A stretch of DNA of 25,975 nucleotides, taken from Thermoplasmatales archaeon (lineage in GTDB: Archaea; Thermoplasmatota; E2; DHVEG-1). Of the stretch, positions 1-6,680 are shown piece by piece (positions within the stretch are counted from its first letter, which is position 1; every line of letters starts with the position of its first letter). The notes under the pieces were generated by a model. That model made no database searches. It was not told where the DNA came from and was given only the letters and a program-made list of their open reading frames with translations. The position numbers were made by a program, and so were the translations under genes. The stretch covers positions 1 through 25,975 of the forward strand of contig JAGLML010000001.1 in assembly GCA_023140035.1 (NCBI GenBank). The letters are read 5' to 3'.

Positions 1-144
1 TTAAACCTTTCTTGATGAGGTTATTTCCTTCCATGTTCCCCCTCTTCATATTAATAATGTAGAACTGATATATTTGTTTATCCCTGCCGTAGGTAGCATT
101 TATATACCCAATCATCTATAGATATAATTGGGAGGAACTATAAA

Positions 145-1758
145 GTGAAGCATATCATCCCGATACTGATAGTCCTGTTACTTCTTTCATCTGGGTTTGT
201 AGGTGTGTCAAATACCACAGAGGAGTTAACAGTTGATACTGAGCAGATGGAGCAGACAACAGCAACTTCTGCGGGTCCAATGAATTCTTCCTGGCCGATG
301 TTTGGTCATGATGTTCGTCATACTGGAAGGAGTCCTTATAGTACTGCTAACAATGAGTATATACTTAAATGGACATATTGGGTTGACTTTGGAATCGATT
401 CGTCTCCCGCCATTGATGAAAACAATATAATTTATGTGTCAAGTAAGGATAATTATTTGCATGCACTCTATCCAAATGGGACCGAGAAATGGCGGTTTGA
501 CTGTCATGATTGGGTAACTTCTTCTCCAGCAATCGATGAAGATGGAGTAGTTTATGTTGGCTCATGGGCCGACAGACTATTTGCAATCAATCCAAATGGA
601 TCACTTAAATGGCGTTTTGATACCCATGATACTATAACGTCTTCCCCTACAATTGCGAAAGACGGAACCATCTACTTTGGAGTGTTAGGAGCAGGGTCAA
701 ATAAGGGGTTGGTTTATGCCCTAAATCCAAATGGTACTGTTAAATGGCATTTTGACACAGGTGATAGGGTGTATTTTTCTCCAGCCATTGGTGATGATGG
801 GACTGTCTATGTAACTTCGAATTCTATGCTTCTTTATGCGTTATATCCCAATAATGGCACTATGAAATGGAGTCGGAGTATGGGCGCCTGGTGTGGAAGC
901 CCTACTATAGCTGATGATGGAACCATATATGTTGCTACAATGGCAGGTGATCTAAAAGCAATATATCCAAACAATGGGACAATTAAATGGACTAGCGGTA
1001 TTGACTGGGGAAGTGCAAATACCCCGTCCATTGCAGAGGATGGAACGATATACATAGGACAAAAATACTTCTATGCTATCAACCCTGATGGAACAAGAAA
1101 ATGGACTTTTGACCCTGAAGGAGATCTCCATGTTACAACATCTAGTGCAATTTCCGCTGATGGTACAATCTACTTTGGAGTAACAAGGGGCATCTACCGA
1201 GGGGATATTATCGCTCTTAATCCCGATGGAACCGAAAAATGGCAAAAGGTAATTGCTGATGATTGGGTGTATTCTTCGCCAGTAATTGACAGTGAGGGCA
1301 CAGTATATATTGGTTCACAATCAAGGGTAAGTGGAATATCATATGGCTATCTTTATGCGTTTGGCGAAGTAGATTCAAATGCACCTGATGCACCTGATAT
1401 TGATGGTCGAACCAATGGACGGGTCAGAAGGTCATATGATTACACGTTTATGTCTACAGACCCCAATGGCGATGATGTCTACTATTATATTGAATGGGGA
1501 GACGGTGCTGTAGAAGACTGGCTTGGTCCCTATAGTTCTGGTGAAGAAATAACACTAAGTCATACATGGAATGAGAAAGGAACGTATACAATTAGAGCCA
1601 GAGCTAAAGACACCTATAATTTGTGGGGCCCGTGGGGTGAACTTGAGGTCACTATGCCGATGAACCAACAATCACAGAACTGGTGGTTTTTACAGTTCTT
1701 ACAGAACCATCCACGGATGTTTCCGATACTAAGACAGCTACTAGGATTACATTATTGA
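145..1758 (+). CDS. Secreted PQQ-like (BamB-type) beta-propeller repeat protein with C-terminal PKD-like domain
   Basis: GTG start with GGAGGA RBS at 131-136; hydrophobic signal peptide; WPMFGHDVRHTG motif; about 7-8 repeats of SSPAIxxDGTIY..LYAxNPxGTxKW; PKD-like YYYIEWGDG...HTWNEKGTYTIRARAKD. Confidence 0.88.
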   Translation: MKHIIPILIVLLLLSSGFVGVSNTTEELTVDTEQMEQTTATSAGPMNSSWPMFGHDVRHTGRSPYSTANNEYILKWTYWVDFGIDSSPAIDENNIIYVSSKDNYLHALYPNGTEKWRFDCHDWVTSSPAIDEDGVVYVGSWADRLFAINPNGSLKWRFDTHDTITSSPTIAKDGTIYFGVLGAGSNKGLVYALNPNGTVKWHFDTGDRVYFSPAIGDDGTVYVTSNSMLLYALYPNNGTMKWSRSMGAWCGSPTIADDGTIYVATMAGDLKAIYPNNGTIKWTSGIDWGSANTPSIAEDGTIYIGQKYFYAINPDGTRKWTFDPEGDLHVTTSSAISADGTIYFGVTRGIYRGDIIALNPDGTEKWQKVIADDWVYSSPVIDSEGTVYIGSQSRVSGISYGYLYAFGEVDSNAPDAPDIDGRTNGRVRRSYDYTFMSTDPNGDDVYYYIEWGDGAVEDWLGPYSSGEEITLSHTWNEKGTYTIRARAKDTYNLWGPWGELEVTMPMNQQSQNWWFLQFLQNHPRMFPILRQLLGLHY

Positions 1759-1867: not shown

Positions 1868-2458
1868 ATGACATCACCAAACGTTTTCATTATCGAATCT
1901 CTATTTTTTGATGACGAAGAAAATGATAGATACGAAGGAAAATTTTTATCTCATATATTAAACCTTGATCGAGAAAAAAAAGCTTCAATTTATTATTATA
2001 TCAGAACAAAAAAAGAACTAGAAAAGATATTAAATAAATTTGATTTGAGTAATTATCGATACCTCCATATTTCCTGTCATGGAAATGATAAAAATTTGTA
2101 TACGACGTTAGATAGAATTTCATATGAGGAATTTGGAAAAATTATCAAACCACATCTTAACAAAAGGCGTTTGTTTCTCTCTGCCTGTGAATCAGTTAAT
2201 ATTAGTATGGCAAAAGTAATTATTCCTGACACTGAGTGTTATTCGTTAATTGGTTTTGGGAAGGCTATAGAATTTGCGGATGCTGCGGTAATGTGGGCTT
2301 CTTTTTATCATCTAATGTTTAAAAAGGATTCTAAAGCAATGAAACGAGAATATATACTTCCTATTCTTAAAAAAATTAAAAAAACTTATGATATTTCCAT
2401 GAGATTTTTCTCAAAAACTCCTAGAATCAAGGAAGGTGTAAGAGAGTATCTTGTTTGA
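1868..2458 (+). CDS. Standalone caspase-fold (CHAT/HetF-like) putative cysteine protease
   Basis: 196 aa; YLHISCHG and RLFLSACE match the His-Gly and Ser-Ala-Cys catalytic-dyad motifs of CHAT/caspase-hemoglobinase proteins. Confidence 0.62.
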   Translation: MTSPNVFIIESLFFDDEENDRYEGKFLSHILNLDREKKASIYYYIRTKKELEKILNKFDLSNYRYLHISCHGNDKNLYTTLDRISYEEFGKIIKPHLNKRRLFLSACESVNISMAKVIIPDTECYSLIGFGKAIEFADAAVMWASFYHLMFKKDSKAMKREYILPILKKIKKTYDISMRFFSKTPRIKEGVREYLV

Positions 2459-2565
2459 TAATTATACTGCAGTATGAAAAATTTAATATAGTATAAATTA
2501 CATACATAAATATAGAATGGAGGAGAGGAGGAAGGAAAACAGACTGCAGTACAAAAAACGCAAAC

Positions 2566-2573
2566 TTTATAAA
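2566..2573 (+). promoter_or_regulatory. Putative TATA box (TTTATAAA) for the 2615 wHTH gene
   Basis: TTTATAAA preceded by an A-rich BRE-like stretch; GGAGTGA RBS at 2602-2608; ATG at 2615. Confidence 0.45.
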
Positions 2574-2614
2574 CACCAAAATTTTTCACTCTCCGAAATA
2601 AGGAGTGAAAATAG

Positions 2615-2908
2615 ATGACGAATTGGGAATTACTTTCACCAGAATTAAAAGCTTGTAGTGTCATCTATGAATTTACACAAATCAAAAAAGAGAAGATATG
2701 GTTTAATAAAATAGTCAAGATTCTGGAAAAAGATGTTTCTAGATCTACTATATCAAAGAGCTTGGACAAACTATTCGACTTGGGCGTAATAGATGGTAAT
2801 TGGAAAAAGGCAGAAGGGAAATGGACTAGAGTTTTTAATATCTCTGGAGAGGCAAAAGATTTTGTCAAGAGTATTTATAATAATACTAGGCGCCTTTCTA
2901 AATCCTAG
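2615..2908 (+). CDS. Small winged-helix DNA-binding protein
   Basis: 97 aa; helix-turn-helix (FNKIVKIL..VSRSTISKSLDKLFDLGVI) plus beta-wing (WKKAEGKWTRVFNIS); good RBS. Confidence 0.7.
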   Translation: MTNWELLSPELKACSVIYEFTQIKKEKIWFNKIVKILEKDVSRSTISKSLDKLFDLGVIDGNWKKAEGKWTRVFNISGEAKDFVKSIYNNTRRLSKS

Positions 2909-3932
2909 AGAAACGTCGAAATTCAGGGGATCTAAGTTCTACATTGTCAATTAATATTCCTTTTTTTCTTATTTCTGGTAATACTTTAGTCTGAATACTT
3001 TCTAAAAATTTTTGGTTTAAAAGAAATGGTACACATATCTTACAAATAATTTCTGATTTTTTGGTATTTGCTAGCTTGTAAAGACAAAAATCAGGGGAAT
3101 TTTTCCAAATTTGGCATTTACTGGGATCGTATCGTGGATTTAACAATGGCACCATTTTAATTTCTGTATTTCCATCATAACATGCCATAAAACATCTTAT
3201 TTTGTATCCATCTATCTCTGTAATTATTGAATCATAAGGAACGAGAATGGATTTATCATTTGAATTTATCTCAATTGATATATCGAGTGAATGTCTAGTA
3301 TCAGCAATTGAGTCAACAATAAAATCATCATATATATTCACAATTTTTCTACTAAATGATTCAACCAAATACTCGTATATTTTATCTAGGTTGGTATAGG
3401 ATGTTGTAAGCTTTAATATTGGATAATCTGGATTGTCTTTTACTCTAAGTCCTGAGAGATAAATAATCTCCCAATCCATATATTTCTTTGCTTGCGCTTC
3501 ATATGTAGAGAATTTTTTGCATGCCTCAATTTCAATCTGATGTTTTATATTAATATTATCAAAAGCTTTGTCATTTATTAACAGACAAGCAACTTTTATG
3601 CTCTGAGGTTTATGATTTTTGAGATCTCTAACTGTCCTAAGTATAGTTGCTCCAGAGCGAACTGAATTATCGAAAAGCAAAATTCTTAATCCTTTTATTA
3701 AAGGTGGTAAAATTTGGTTGTCTGAAATAATATTGAATTTTGCTAAGTCAGGATTATCATGAAAAAAATCATGTAATATCCACGTACCTTTTCTATCAAC
3801 GCCTACAATTGTATCAATTTTACCAATACATTTTTCCATTACTTTCCTTAAAAAATCATCTATTTCTTGTTTTATCTTGGGATATTTCTCGGGTTTTATT
3901 ATATCGTCCAGAGAAGTGACGTTTTCATACAT
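2898..3932 (-). CDS. Type I phosphoribosyltransferase-domain protein with unknown C-terminal domain
   Basis: IVGVDRKG and ILLFDNSVRSGAT (PRPP-binding-loop-like), followed by IKVACLL; about 190 C-terminal residues not recognised; TATA-like TTATATA at 3955-3961 on the minus strand, about 23 nt upstream of the ATG. Confidence 0.65.
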   Translation of the reverse strand: MYENVTSLDDIIKPEKYPKIKQEIDDFLRKVMEKCIGKIDTIVGVDRKGTWILHDFFHDNPDLAKFNIISDNQILPPLIKGLRILLFDNSVRSGATILRTVRDLKNHKPQSIKVACLLINDKAFDNINIKHQIEIEACKKFSTYEAQAKKYMDWEIIYLSGLRVKDNPDYPILKLTTSYTNLDKIYEYLVESFSRKIVNIYDDFIVDSIADTRHSLDISIEINSNDKSILVPYDSIITEIDGYKIRCFMACYDGNTEIKMVPLLNPRYDPSKCQIWKNSPDFCLYKLANTKKSEIICKICVPFLLNQKFLESIQTKVLPEIRKKGILIDNVELRSPEFRRFSRI

Positions 3933-3985
3933 TGGTTTTGGATAATTATCAGAGTATATAATGTTATGGAGGGGATTAGATGAGT

Positions 3986-4360
3986 CTATTTCTTGTTTTC
4001 AATTTCAACAATTTTTTGTTGCTCTGATGGTAATTTGATTTCTTTCTCATAGTCTTTTAAGAAAGTCATAAGACGCTCACCACGTAGTGTAAAATCATAA
4101 ACATGTGTTTCACGTCGTTCTGATCTTTTTGGATGTTGTTTGATTATGTTAAGATTCTGAAGGATTTTTAATCGGCGGGATAATGATGATTGTGATAGCT
4201 GTTTTTCTAGGGTTTTATCAAGATCCTTATAGCGTCGAGGTTCTTCTTCTAAAAGATACAATAGTTCTAGAGTGCCATCTTTCCCCAGTGTTCTACCGAG
4301 TTCCTTGCACTTTCCATAAGGACAGATTTTAATAACCTTGGAGTTTTTATTGTTATACAT
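3986..4360 (-). CDS. HxlR/ArsR-like winged-helix transcriptional regulator
   Basis: LELLYLLEEEPRRYKDL...SQSSLSRRLKILQNLNII...VYDFTLRG is a typical HxlR-type wHTH pattern. Confidence 0.78.
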   Translation of the reverse strand: MYNNKNSKVIKICPYGKCKELGRTLGKDGTLELLYLLEEEPRRYKDLDKTLEKQLSQSSLSRRLKILQNLNIIKQHPKRSERRETHVYDFTLRGERLMTFLKDYEKEIKLPSEQQKIVEIENKK

Positions 4361-4384
4361 TTAAAATTCTAAATAGATTTATTA

Positions 4385-4392
4385 TTAATAAA
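4385..4392 (-). promoter_or_regulatory. Putative TATA box (TTTATTAA) for a leaderless wHTH transcript
   Basis: 25 nt upstream of the ATG at 4360; no RBS visible. Confidence 0.45.
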
Positions 4393-4398
4393 CGTTCA

Positions 4399-4478
4399 GT
4401 TTTTGACTGTGTCAGAATTTGATTGTGTCAAATTTTGAATGTATCAGTTTTTGACACGGTCATTTTTTGATACAATCA
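4399..4478. repeat. Five tandem imperfect 16-bp repeats, each with a palindromic TGA-N5-TCA core (operator/iteron-like)
   Basis: gtttttgactgtgtca / gaatttgattgtgtca / aattttgaatgtatca / gtttttgacacggtca / ttttttgatacaatca, in exact 16-bp register. Confidence 0.85.
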
Positions 4479-4542
4479 AGTTTTGTTCGAAAAATCATAT
4501 ATAAAATTGAAATTATGTCATATTCCCGTGAGTAGATTGTGA

Positions 4543-4698
4543 TTATTTACTATTTACGGGGGTTTTCCTAGGTTTATCCCAGTACGGGCTTTTGCATTTC
4601 GGGCATACTCTCGGTTTTTCCTCCCAGTTTCTTGGTATCCATTCGTGTTCGCATCGTTCGCATTTGTATCCATCAACGGTGATTTTGACTTTTCCCAT
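4543..4698 (-). CDS. Small zinc-ribbon protein (51 aa), absent from the ORF track
   Basis: Manual translation MGKVKITVDGYKCERCEHEWIPRNWEEKPRVCPKCKSPYWDKPRKTPVNSK*; two CxxC pairs; TTTATATA box at 4724-4731 (minus strand) 26 nt upstream. Confidence 0.8.
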   Translation of the reverse strand: MGKVKITVDGYKCERCEHEWIPRNWEEKPRVCPKCKSPYWDKPRKTPVNSK

Positions 4699-4720
4699 AC
4701 GTATAGAGTATACTATTTAC

Positions 4721-4770
4721 GGGTATATAAATTTTAGGTATATTATTTCAAAGGTAAAGTTTATATACCC
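4721..4770. promoter_or_regulatory. Divergent TATA boxes forming an 11-bp inverted repeat
   Basis: GGGTATATAAA (4721-4731) and TTTATATACCC (4760-4770) are exact reverse complements; they point toward the zinc-ribbon gene and the transposase respectively. Confidence 0.6.
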
Positions 4771-4811
4771 CTGAAGTATATACTTTAATAGTAATATACT
4801 TTAAAAGTAAG

Positions 4812-4841
4812 TGCCAAGGGTTGTTGGTCCTCCCCTTGGCA
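4812..4841 (+). promoter_or_regulatory. GC-rich 9-bp stem-loop abutting the transposase RBS
   Basis: TGCCAAGGG (4812-4820) / CCCTTGGCA (4833-4841), 12-nt loop; AGGAGA starts at 4841; ATG at 4855. Confidence 0.5.
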
Positions 4842-4854
4842 GGAGATATAACGA

Positions 4855-6405
4855 ATGCGGTCTAGCAAACAAAACATCTCCAAATCGTACATAGAAAAGG
4901 AGATATATAACACATTTGAAATAATCGAAAATAAAAAGAAAATTTGCATAGCTGATTTTCTAAATAAATTAGAAATTAACTCATTAGTTCCCATCAATTA
5001 TAGATCAATTAAATTCTCTTGTGAATCCCTTATTAAGCTTATTATATTTCAGAAGCTTAAAGGAATGAAATTCCAAACACAACTAATAAGATACCTAAAA
5101 AGACATAGAAACGAACTGAAACTCCTCGGACTTGATGAAATACCTGATCAGACAACAATCAGCTACTTCATCAACCACATTCTCGATAACGAAACAAAAG
5201 AACTATTGAACTATACTACGAAAAAGATTGAAGAAATATCAGAAAAATTCGACATTATTCTAGATATACAAATACCACAATCAGAAAAACCAAAAACACA
5301 AGATAGAAACAGAAACTTCTATTACAAGAAAAACCAAAAAACAACAGAAGTTAGCAGGATGTTCAAAAAACGATTTTCATCTGTAATAGACCTGAACATC
5401 CACCACAACGCAATTTACACTAAAAAGGATTTTATAGACTTAATCCTGCATATGATATGGACAGGAGACTATGCAGAGAGCGGATCAGAAACATTAAAAC
5501 AAAAAAGAAACAAAACACCTGATGCTGACACATTCCTATATCATCTGAAAAACTACCAAAACATAGGACAGATTCAACGGATGTATCAGACATACTTTGA
5601 GATGATATGGGAATCAGCAAGGAAAGCAAACATGTTCCGCAAGCCAGTGGATGTGGCAATAGATTTCACCGACTGGTTCTTCTATGGAGATAAGAATGCA
5701 CCGATGGTCGTAGAAAAGAAACCAGAACGGGGAACTACACACTGCTATCGATTCGCCACCATCTCAATAGTAGAGCCAAAACAGAGATTTACATTACTTG
5801 CAATACCAGTTGGACCATTTGACAGAAAAGAGACAATCATCAGAACACTCCTTAACTATGCATCAAAGCGAGTTAAGATAAAACGATTGTATGCTGACAG
5901 GGGATTCTTCGATTCAAACTCCATTGAGATATTCAAAAGATTCAATATCAAATTCATTATGCCCTGCTCAGCTAACTCAAGAATAAAAAGAGTTCTTGAG
6001 GTTATGCCCGCTCCAAAAGTTATTACTAATTACGTGATGAAAAACAGCAGGTTCAATGTTGTATTGGTTGAAGATGAATACGGGATTAAAAGAGCATTTG
6101 CTACAAACATCGACTTTGATGAGAACGATGTAGGATTATCAAAAAGACTGTTCTACCTTTACAGTAAAAGGTGGGGGATTGAAACAGGTTATAGGGTGAA
6201 GAAGCATTCTTTCAGAGCGAAAACAACATCAAAGAATTATTTCATTCGGCTCTTCTACTTCTTGTTTTCTGCTTTGTTGTATAACCTGTGGATACTTGCT
6301 AGTATCATCATTAGCCTGGCTTTGTTTGGGTTTGTAAAGGATGTCCGTATTGTTAAATCGAAGTTTTTTGTTTCTGTTCTTCTCACGATTGACCCAGGGG
6401 GTTGA
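4855..6405 (+). mobile_element. IS4-superfamily (ISH3-like) DDE transposase, apparently intact, 516 aa; element ends not resolved
   Basis: VAIDFTD (D1), YADRGFF (D2) and YSKRWGIETGYR (E, YREK-like); C-terminal FYFLFSALLYNLW. Confidence 0.88.
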
Positions 6406-6680
6406 CATTATGATATTGGGAAGCCAAACCAATAACCTTTTTTCCTATTGTTAATCAGAGTTTATTAGAACAAAATCTCTTTATTTTCTGATTTTGATTT
6501 GTTTTCTTACTAATTTTCGATATTTTTGTCTCAAATTTCTATGATGGATATGTCTTGAAAAATGAATTTTAGACCGATTTTGTGATTTCCCAGGTTACTT
6601 TCGGAACTACTGCTTTCTTAGCAAAAATTATATATGATTAATGCATTACATATGTTAACAATTAACCAGGAGGTATTTAT

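Follow-up and report, generated by a model that had tools for sequence, protein, structure and literature searches.

The window, the whole stretch of 25,975 nucleotides analysed here, is contig C1 of a 1.38-Mb metagenome-assembled genome (260 contigs, 64% complete, 35% GC), and its DNA occurs in cold-seep metagenomes and was found in no RNA run. It contains a row of five phased palindromic boxes between a gene for a 124-aa HxlR-like protein and a gene for a 51-aa zinc-ribbon protein, beyond which a transposase is encoded on the opposite strand (Table 1). Each of these three genes is single-copy in the assembly.

The box cores, TGACTGTGTCA at 4404, TGATTGTGTCA at 4420, TGAATGTATCA at 4436, TGACACGGTCA at 4452 and TGATACAATCA at 4468, all have the form TGA-N5-TCA; they start exactly 16 bp apart and are separated by A/T-rich linkers of 5 bp. 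Two programs (Tandem Repeats Finder and a second repeat search) return a period of 16 for the array, and the two-box word TGA-N5-TCA-N5-TGA-N5-TCA occurs four times in the window, always within the array, and not once in 100 dinucleotide-preserving shuffles. The cores, linkers and period described in the original prediction are thus borne out. So are two further points of it: on the + strand the box centres read TGT, TGT, TGT and then ACG and ACA, a reversal of orientation after the third box, and the array starts 7 bp beyond the TATA of the HxlR-like gene, a TATA-like stretch that ends at 4392. The intervening bases form a sixth half-box in phase with the others, which receives a low matrix score when scored as a full box.

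Scanning the entire 1.38-Mb assembly, we found single TGA-N5-TCA words at chance level (531 versus about 470 expected), and the window array was the only cluster of at least three. A 13-bp weight matrix (consensus TTGAYACARTCAA), built from the window array and the homologous arrays described below, placed the window's five boxes within the genome's six best sites. Isolated high-scoring matrix sites were not above expectation genome-wide, and none fell inside the mobile element that carries the array.

The 28-bp distance from TATA to ATG implies a leaderless or near-leaderless HxlR mRNA. On the other side of the array, 8 bp from the distal box, an alignment of 11 loci shows an invariant CGAAAAATC followed by a variable TATA-like run, with the conserved ATATGACATAT and a hairpin a further 20–25 bp away. 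The stems of this hairpin vary by locus (CCCGTG/CACGGG versus CCCGAGGA/TCCTCGGG), and the conserved palindrome ATATGACATA is not enriched elsewhere in the window. As a side observation, palindrome and zinc-ribbon-stop hairpin together (window 4510–4563) are conserved in all the cassette classes defined below; a conserved factor, perhaps the zinc-ribbon protein, may bind there, or an antisense RNA may have its 5' end at this place. The hairpin before the transposase gene is likewise found at the same place in loci L003 to L038; at L038 its stem differs (CCTAAAGGAG/CTCCTTTAGG), and a different stem in the same place suggests translational or read-through control of the transposase.

Table 1. Coordinates of array, genes and flanking features in the window.
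Feature	Position	Strand	Basis and remarks
Candidate far end of the element, CAGTAC...	2547..2566	+	Uncertain; no matching 5-bp duplication
124-aa HxlR/DUF24-type winged-helix protein, proposed array binder	3986..4360	-	Pfam PF01638; AF2 model; homologues
TATA-like element, 28 bp from the start codon of the HxlR-like gene (ATG, 4360)	4381..4392	-	Sequence; A/T-rich TATA-like stretch in the same place in all loci; putative promoter
Half-degenerate sixth box (gene strand TGAACG), in phase at 16 bp, directly adjoining the TATA, at the BRE position	4393..4398	-	Sequence; block (C/G)TGAA(C/T)GTTTA kept in all TGA..TCA-class loci
Array of five 16-bp units, 11-bp cores, extended box TTGAY-ACA-RTCAA	4399..4478	.	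Sequence; repeat finders; homologous loci in register
Junction block common to all specificity classes: invariant CGAAAAATC, TATA-like run, palindrome ATATGACATAT	4485..4530	.	Alignment of 11 loci
Hairpin over the 3' end and stop codon of the zinc-ribbon gene	4522..4563	.	-16.5 kcal/mol, z -2.6; kept in all cassette classes
51-aa CxxC...CxxC zinc-ribbon protein, conserved module member	4543..4698	-	Family and homology searches; 62–91% identity across loci
Inverted repeat with two back-to-back TTTATATACCC promoter-like elements, putatively of the zinc-ribbon gene and the transposase	4704..4787	.	Repeat search; sequence
Hairpin GCCAAGGG...CCCTTGGC, directly 5' of the transposase AGGAG and ATG	4812..4841	+	Sequence; folding
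516-aa DDE transposase, ISH3-like, DUF772-type N-terminus	4855..6405	+	NCBIfam ISH3, below cutoff
Transposase-side terminus, ...TACTTTCGGAACTACTG	6596..6612	+	Kept in 10 loci; flanks diverge right after

The 124-aa protein clearly belongs to the HxlR/DUF24 winged helices. It matches PF01638 with 29.5 bits (cutoff 20.8), and its AF2 model (pLDDT 78; H16-25, H28-39, H44-50, H57-69, E73-76, E87-90, H92-106) predicts a helix-turn-helix, a beta wing and a long C-terminal helix. With this model, the top five Foldseek hits are chains of YodB (5hs7–5hs9; TM 0.53–0.72), and further fold matches include PadR, MarR, DNA-bound QsrR (4hqe), CzrA/SmtB and HypR; a profile of 20 homologues searched against the PDB likewise finds YodB (5.6e-6) and HxlR (1.5e-3). 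Proteins of the HxlR/DUF24 family act as dimers on palindromic operators. The two cysteines near the N-terminus of the window protein, C13 and C18, are not conserved among the 20 homologues, which makes a YodB-type thiol switch unlikely and probably places the protein outside the YodB/QsrR/HypR subgroup of thiol sensors. A C-terminal tail, YEKEIxLPxxQQKI, is strictly conserved throughout all specificity classes.

Homologous modules and their box classes

A search of 5.8 billion proteins yielded 21 homologues of the 124-aa protein (53–98% identity), and we compared the DNA of those retrievable on longer contigs from metagenomes and MAGs. Read from the transposase side, each compared locus presents a divergent transposase of about 518 aa, the GCCAAGGG...CCCTTGGC hairpin, back-to-back TTTATATA elements and the zinc-ribbon ORF; toward the regulator these are followed by the hairpin over the zinc-ribbon stop, a conserved block ending GATTTTTCG, the boxes, a TATA and the HxlR gene. 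Array, zinc-ribbon gene and 'IS' are parts of a single mobile module that is conserved as a whole. The original prediction had also put forward a nearby 97-aa wHTH protein as a binder of the array. Its gene is missing from the conserved module at every other locus examined, and we rejected it, so that the 124-aa protein alone stands as the candidate binder.

Upstream of all close homologues of the 124-aa protein, where the original prediction had proposed to look, lies the same array. Loci whose HxlR is 55–86% identical to that of the window have five TGA-N5-TCA boxes (in one locus four and a decayed one), and they keep the 16-bp pitch, the distance to the ATG, the orientation pattern of two distal and three proximal boxes and the half-box on the TATA. 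Linker and centre bases vary among these loci while half-sites and pitch stay the same, which points to purifying selection on half-sites and spacing.

More distant modules, retrieved by searching species-representative genomes, have four to six boxes at a pitch of about 16 bp in the same slot and with other half-sites. Six TGG-N5-CCA boxes are found in genomes G175 and G295, TTGG-N5-CCAA boxes in G130 and G325, a TCG..CGA-like set at locus L015 and GATAGGCTAA-like boxes in G322. The orientation patterns of these classes differ from that of the TGA class; in the alignment of 11 loci the proximal-most box reaches the BRE/TATA of the HxlR gene in every class. The recognition helix reads LSQ(S/T)SLSRR in the TGA class and (T/K)TTLVR(Q/R) in the TGG..CCA class, and the remaining classes have other motifs. 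The TTGG..CCAA and TGG..CCA classes each contain two HxlR proteins that are only 33–38% identical to each other, so the code from helix to box is not simple.

The boxes change together with HxlR. In G325, a complete genome of the same genus, the transposase is 88% and the zinc ribbon 91% identical to those of the window, whereas the HxlR protein is only about 28–30% identical and the boxes are unrelated. At the DNA level the two loci are homologous (85%) from 4477, which is the final base of the distal box and hence the distal edge of the array, up to 6647, and no DNA alignment extends across array and HxlR. This swap, in which near-identical transposases and zinc ribbons adjoin a different HxlR and different boxes, indicates that the boxes follow HxlR. 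The converse is seen at locus L003, where HxlR is 85% identical and the boxes are the same while the transposase is 53% identical. Over all locus pairs, mean HxlR identity is 66% within a box class versus 40% between classes, and mean transposase identity is 60% versus 58%; these pairs come from about 11 loci that are not phylogenetically independent. Comparisons in both directions thus assign the boxes to HxlR, and speak against their being read specifically by the transposase or the zinc ribbon. On these sequence comparisons, we regard HxlR plus array as an exchangeable specificity cassette in the control region of ISH3-like, cargo-carrying transposons of Thermoplasmatota.

Two zinc-ribbon homologues elsewhere (L058 in G376; L070 in G130, contig 106) are followed by GAAnTTTC boxes at a pitch of about 15 bp and a different small HTH gene, and other zinc-ribbon homologues have no array beside them; combining a zinc ribbon with an array and a regulator may be a more general design.

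Carrier transposons and their cargo

Unit transposons carry the module (ISH3-like transposase, zinc ribbon, array and HxlR) at one of their ends. For the window transposase, ISH3 is the best-matching family by a wide margin (NCBIfam ISH3: 1.3e-46, 159 bits, below the cutoff of 225). Two complete elements were delimited in relatives. The G175 element (L028, 6008–17016) measures 11,009 bp, lies within a TctA gene, is flanked by a 5-bp duplication, TCATC, and has imperfectly inverted termini, CAGTAG.../CAGTAC...; the same site is uninterrupted in G167, a genome of the same genus, which supplies the empty site. The G322 element (L030, 744–11746) measures 11,003 bp, has CAGTA termini and is flanked by TCTCC. 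The cargo, up to 8 kb in these relatives, includes surface proteins with PQQ-propeller/PKD and M28/PKD domains, a NosD-like protein, an AAA_14/DUF4143 ATPase and HTH proteins. The PQQ-propeller/PKD cargo resembles the window gene at 145–1758. The spread of the module is patchy, the HxlR type being present in 9 and the zinc-ribbon type in 24 of the 401 genomes of the phylum sampled per search (G000 included).

One end of the window element is defined. A tail of about 200 bp downstream of the transposase is common to ten loci and ends ...ACTTTCGGAACTACTG at window 6612, and synteny with two genomes of the same genus, G325 and G397, starts at 6603–6618. This right end, fixed by three comparisons, is located upstream of the next gene, which encodes a 106-aa wHTH protein, at about 14 bp from its TATA. 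The comparison with G325 and G397 gave this right junction and no clean empty site for the window element. The syntenic, element-free site of G325 (L036, G325:922000–925555) keeps a stretch of about 60 bp that resembles the transposon end (window 6597–6647) and may be a remnant or a preferred target.

At the far end, no copy of the 6596–6612 terminus with up to 4 mismatches and no CTTTC-flanked CAGTA was found in the window, which leaves position 2547 as only a candidate left end; cold-seep contigs from four runs gave no joint that defines it. Alternatively, the window element may take in the PQQ/PKD gene and extend beyond the start of the contig. Abutted end-like motifs at window 2460–2552, TACTG/CAGTA (2469/2470) and GACTG/CAGTAC (2546/2547), bracket a 77-bp piece between the caspase-like and 97-aa wHTH genes and may be nested or decayed transposon ends. 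Just upstream of the latter gene, a perfect 10-bp inverted repeat, TTTTCACTCC...GGAGTGAAAA (window 2583–2612), is a candidate operator of the 97-aa protein itself.

Two further observations concern relatives of the transposase and of the cargo. Locus L038 (G325:1879897–1884366) holds a full-length transposase paralogue (56% identity) without zinc ribbon and HxlR; it is divergent from a small ORF that by eye looks ribbon-helix-helix-like, and its right terminus, TACTTTCGGAAGTACTG, matches that of the window. In four cold-seep runs, contig depth over the two ends of the PQQ-propeller/PKD gene (window 1–300 and 1501–1800) exceeds that of the rest 10- to 20-fold, and G325 and G397 contain many partial matches to these ends, which are the conserved modules, leader and anchor, of a large family of paralogous surface proteins.

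Proposed function and alternative readings

We propose that the neighbouring 124-aa HxlR/DUF24 protein has its cognate, multi-site operator in the array, and put the probability of this reading, with its mechanism and cassette context, at roughly 0.7. The cooperative autoregulatory operator of the original prediction is well supported by comparative evidence, as the array recurs and co-varies with HxlR; of the two binders it had considered, the 124-aa protein alone is retained. We infer that binding is by dimers and cooperative. Each dimer would recognise the 13-bp near-palindrome TTGAY-ACA-RTCAA, and the fixed pitch of 16 bp (about 1.5 turns by B-DNA geometry) would place dimers side by side on alternating faces, so that five full boxes and the half-box could carry a continuous dimer filament from the conserved junction block to the gene's own BRE/TATA.

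Occupancy of the promoter-proximal site, which overlaps the BRE position, should shut off the HxlR promoter. Archaeal repressors such as MDR1, LrpA and Phr classically sit at BRE/TATA. That the proximal box lies there in all classes makes autorepression the likeliest output.

At the other edge, CGAAAAATC and the TATA-like element could constitute a second promoter that points outward, toward zinc ribbon and transposase, and runs antisense to the former's gene; an invariant A-rich element beside a variable TATA fits a BRE/TATA that fires away from the array. Between an outward promoter and a second inward one, we lean slightly toward the former. Transposase expression, too, may be gated by the dimer filament.

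Whether HxlR represses or activates bears on one alternative, in which it binds the array as an activator or architectural factor and recruits TBP/TFB to its own or to the outward promoter. Most of the array is upstream of BRE/TATA, in general the position of archaeal activators, and a site upstream of or beside the TATA can serve an activator, as with Ptr2. In every class, however, the proximal site and the BRE position overlap, and HxlR/DUF24 relatives of solved structure are mostly repressors, although HxlR itself is an activator; we infer repression and consider activation unlikely. The boxes could also be bound by the transposase or by the zinc-ribbon protein and help, as an internal enhancer or a subterminal array, to build a transposition complex, for which the Mu IAS and the Tn7 ends are models. 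In keeping with this, the array is at every locus part of a DDE transposon and lies about 380 bp away from the start of the transposase, and between window and G325 the transposase is least conserved over its first 125 residues (60–76% versus 88–100%). But the N-terminal sequences do not sort by box class, proteins 88% (transposase) and 91% (zinc ribbon) identical adjoin completely different boxes in G325, transposases 52–54% identical adjoin the same boxes, and no box-like site lies at or near either transposon terminus, which together make such a role very unlikely.

A third alternative is that the array works as nucleic-acid structure, either a long hairpin RNA (antisense or a processed small RNA) or a DNA cruciform, boxes 1–2 being inverted relative to boxes 4–5. 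Its + strand folds into one 31-pair hairpin of -35.9 kcal/mol (z -6.7) and its - strand reaches -22.8 kcal/mol (z -4.4), but any row of similar palindromes folds trivially. In an alignment of five TGA-class arrays the covariation term was unfavourable (+1.32), with a double change in 1 of 31 pairs and several pairs broken; Rfam returned two sub-threshold matches to miRNA models and none above noise; orientation patterns differ in other classes; and the better-folding strand has no evident promoter. We hold a structural role to be highly improbable. To the suggestion, made as an alternative in the original prediction, that the array is an iteron or centromere-like partition site of a former plasmid or virus, we give next to no credence. 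Phased repeats beside a small DNA-binding protein do resemble iterons and parC/parH-type centromeres, and the array region is A/T-rich and accessory. Yet neither the window's island nor the 11-kb elements of G175 and G322 have a Rep, Orc/Cdc6, ParA or ParM gene; Rep-like Pfam matches were likewise lacking in the island and the relatives' elements, a ParA/ParM/TubZ NTPase was absent from window 1868–6612 and from the G175 and G322 elements, and no Rep, ParA or ParM was seen at any locus examined. The boxes are palindromes of mixed orientation and not direct iterons. What carries the array is a DDE transposon; elements of this kind end in CAGTA termini between 5-bp target duplications, and one empty site has been identified.

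Beyond an operator read by HxlR, we advance a more speculative idea, which on balance we think may well be wrong. HxlR and array might form an element-specific identity or 'immunity' cassette of an undescribed archaeal unit-transposon family, in which the filament holds down an outward promoter feeding the transposase. Transposition would then burst only in cells lacking that repressor type, and selection against cross-repression could drive cassettes to diversify and to be swapped by recombination at the conserved junction block.

Comparison with known systems

The protein side of the proposed operator has clear counterparts. HxlR/DUF24 regulators (YodB, HypR and HxlR of B. subtilis; QsrR of S. 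aureus) share the PF01638 family, the fold, the small size and, if the proposed operator holds, the palindromic target. In known members an N-terminal cysteine senses electrophiles and the operators number one or two, whereas the window has five to six close-packed sites at a 16-bp pitch, an added conserved C-terminal tail and a transposon-borne gene.

As a functional analogy, the arrangement of the locus recalls res and TnpR of Tn3/gamma-delta, where a region for several dimers, the putative counterpart of the array, lies between a divergent transposase and a small DNA-binding gene. Occupancy of res represses both flanking genes. TnpR is a serine recombinase and res has three subsites with unequal spacing, whereas the window HxlR is a winged helix only, without a catalytic domain; its locus has an ISH3-like transposase and an additional zinc-ribbon gene in between. 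Another likeness is to the immunity regions of phages and Mu-type elements: there, as here, repressor and operators co-vary and are swapped as a block with a sharp homology boundary, and an immunity function likened to theirs is putative for the window. Unlike them, the window module comes without phage genes and has four to six equal sites at fixed pitch instead of O1–O3 of graded affinity. Type Ib/II centromeres (parC of R1, parH of TP228) and pNOB8 AspA likewise have rows of short repeats upstream of a gene for a small dimeric protein that regulates itself and forms a filament on them, as proposed for HxlR; the array differs in lacking a partition NTPase and in being carried by a transposon instead of a replicon.

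In itself, a repressor that has several operator sites is commonplace. What is unusual is that a fixed architecture of four to six sites at 16 bp is kept over at least five specificities, that cassettes are cleanly exchanged between near-identical elements, and that all this is located in the control region of archaeal unit transposons with cargo. To our knowledge, few archaeal transcription factors have a defined protein-to-site code. The modules provide a natural series in which one scaffold and one 16-bp architecture serve at least five half-site specificities, and one near-identical pair of elements differs in the cassette only; with these, recognition rules and cooperative filament formation on archaeal promoters become directly testable.

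Among insertion sequences, ISH3 (ISfinder; De Palmenaer et al. 2008, PMC2266710) is the best model for the transposase, and the relatives' elements share with it 5-bp duplications (TCATC, TCTCC) and imperfect terminal inverted repeats; in the window one end is defined. ISH3 elements are 1.2–1.5 kb long with one ORF, whereas those described here have a 516-aa transposase with an extra N-terminal domain, extend to 11 kb and carry a regulator, a zinc ribbon and cargo. Archaeal IS are treated as one- or two-gene elements (PMC6563490, PMC13343696), and we found no description of the module in the literature searched on archaeal IS and integrated elements (PMC6563490, PMC13343696). Against that literature, transposon-encoded control of this kind would be new, and the elements document regulated, cargo-carrying unit transposons in archaea.
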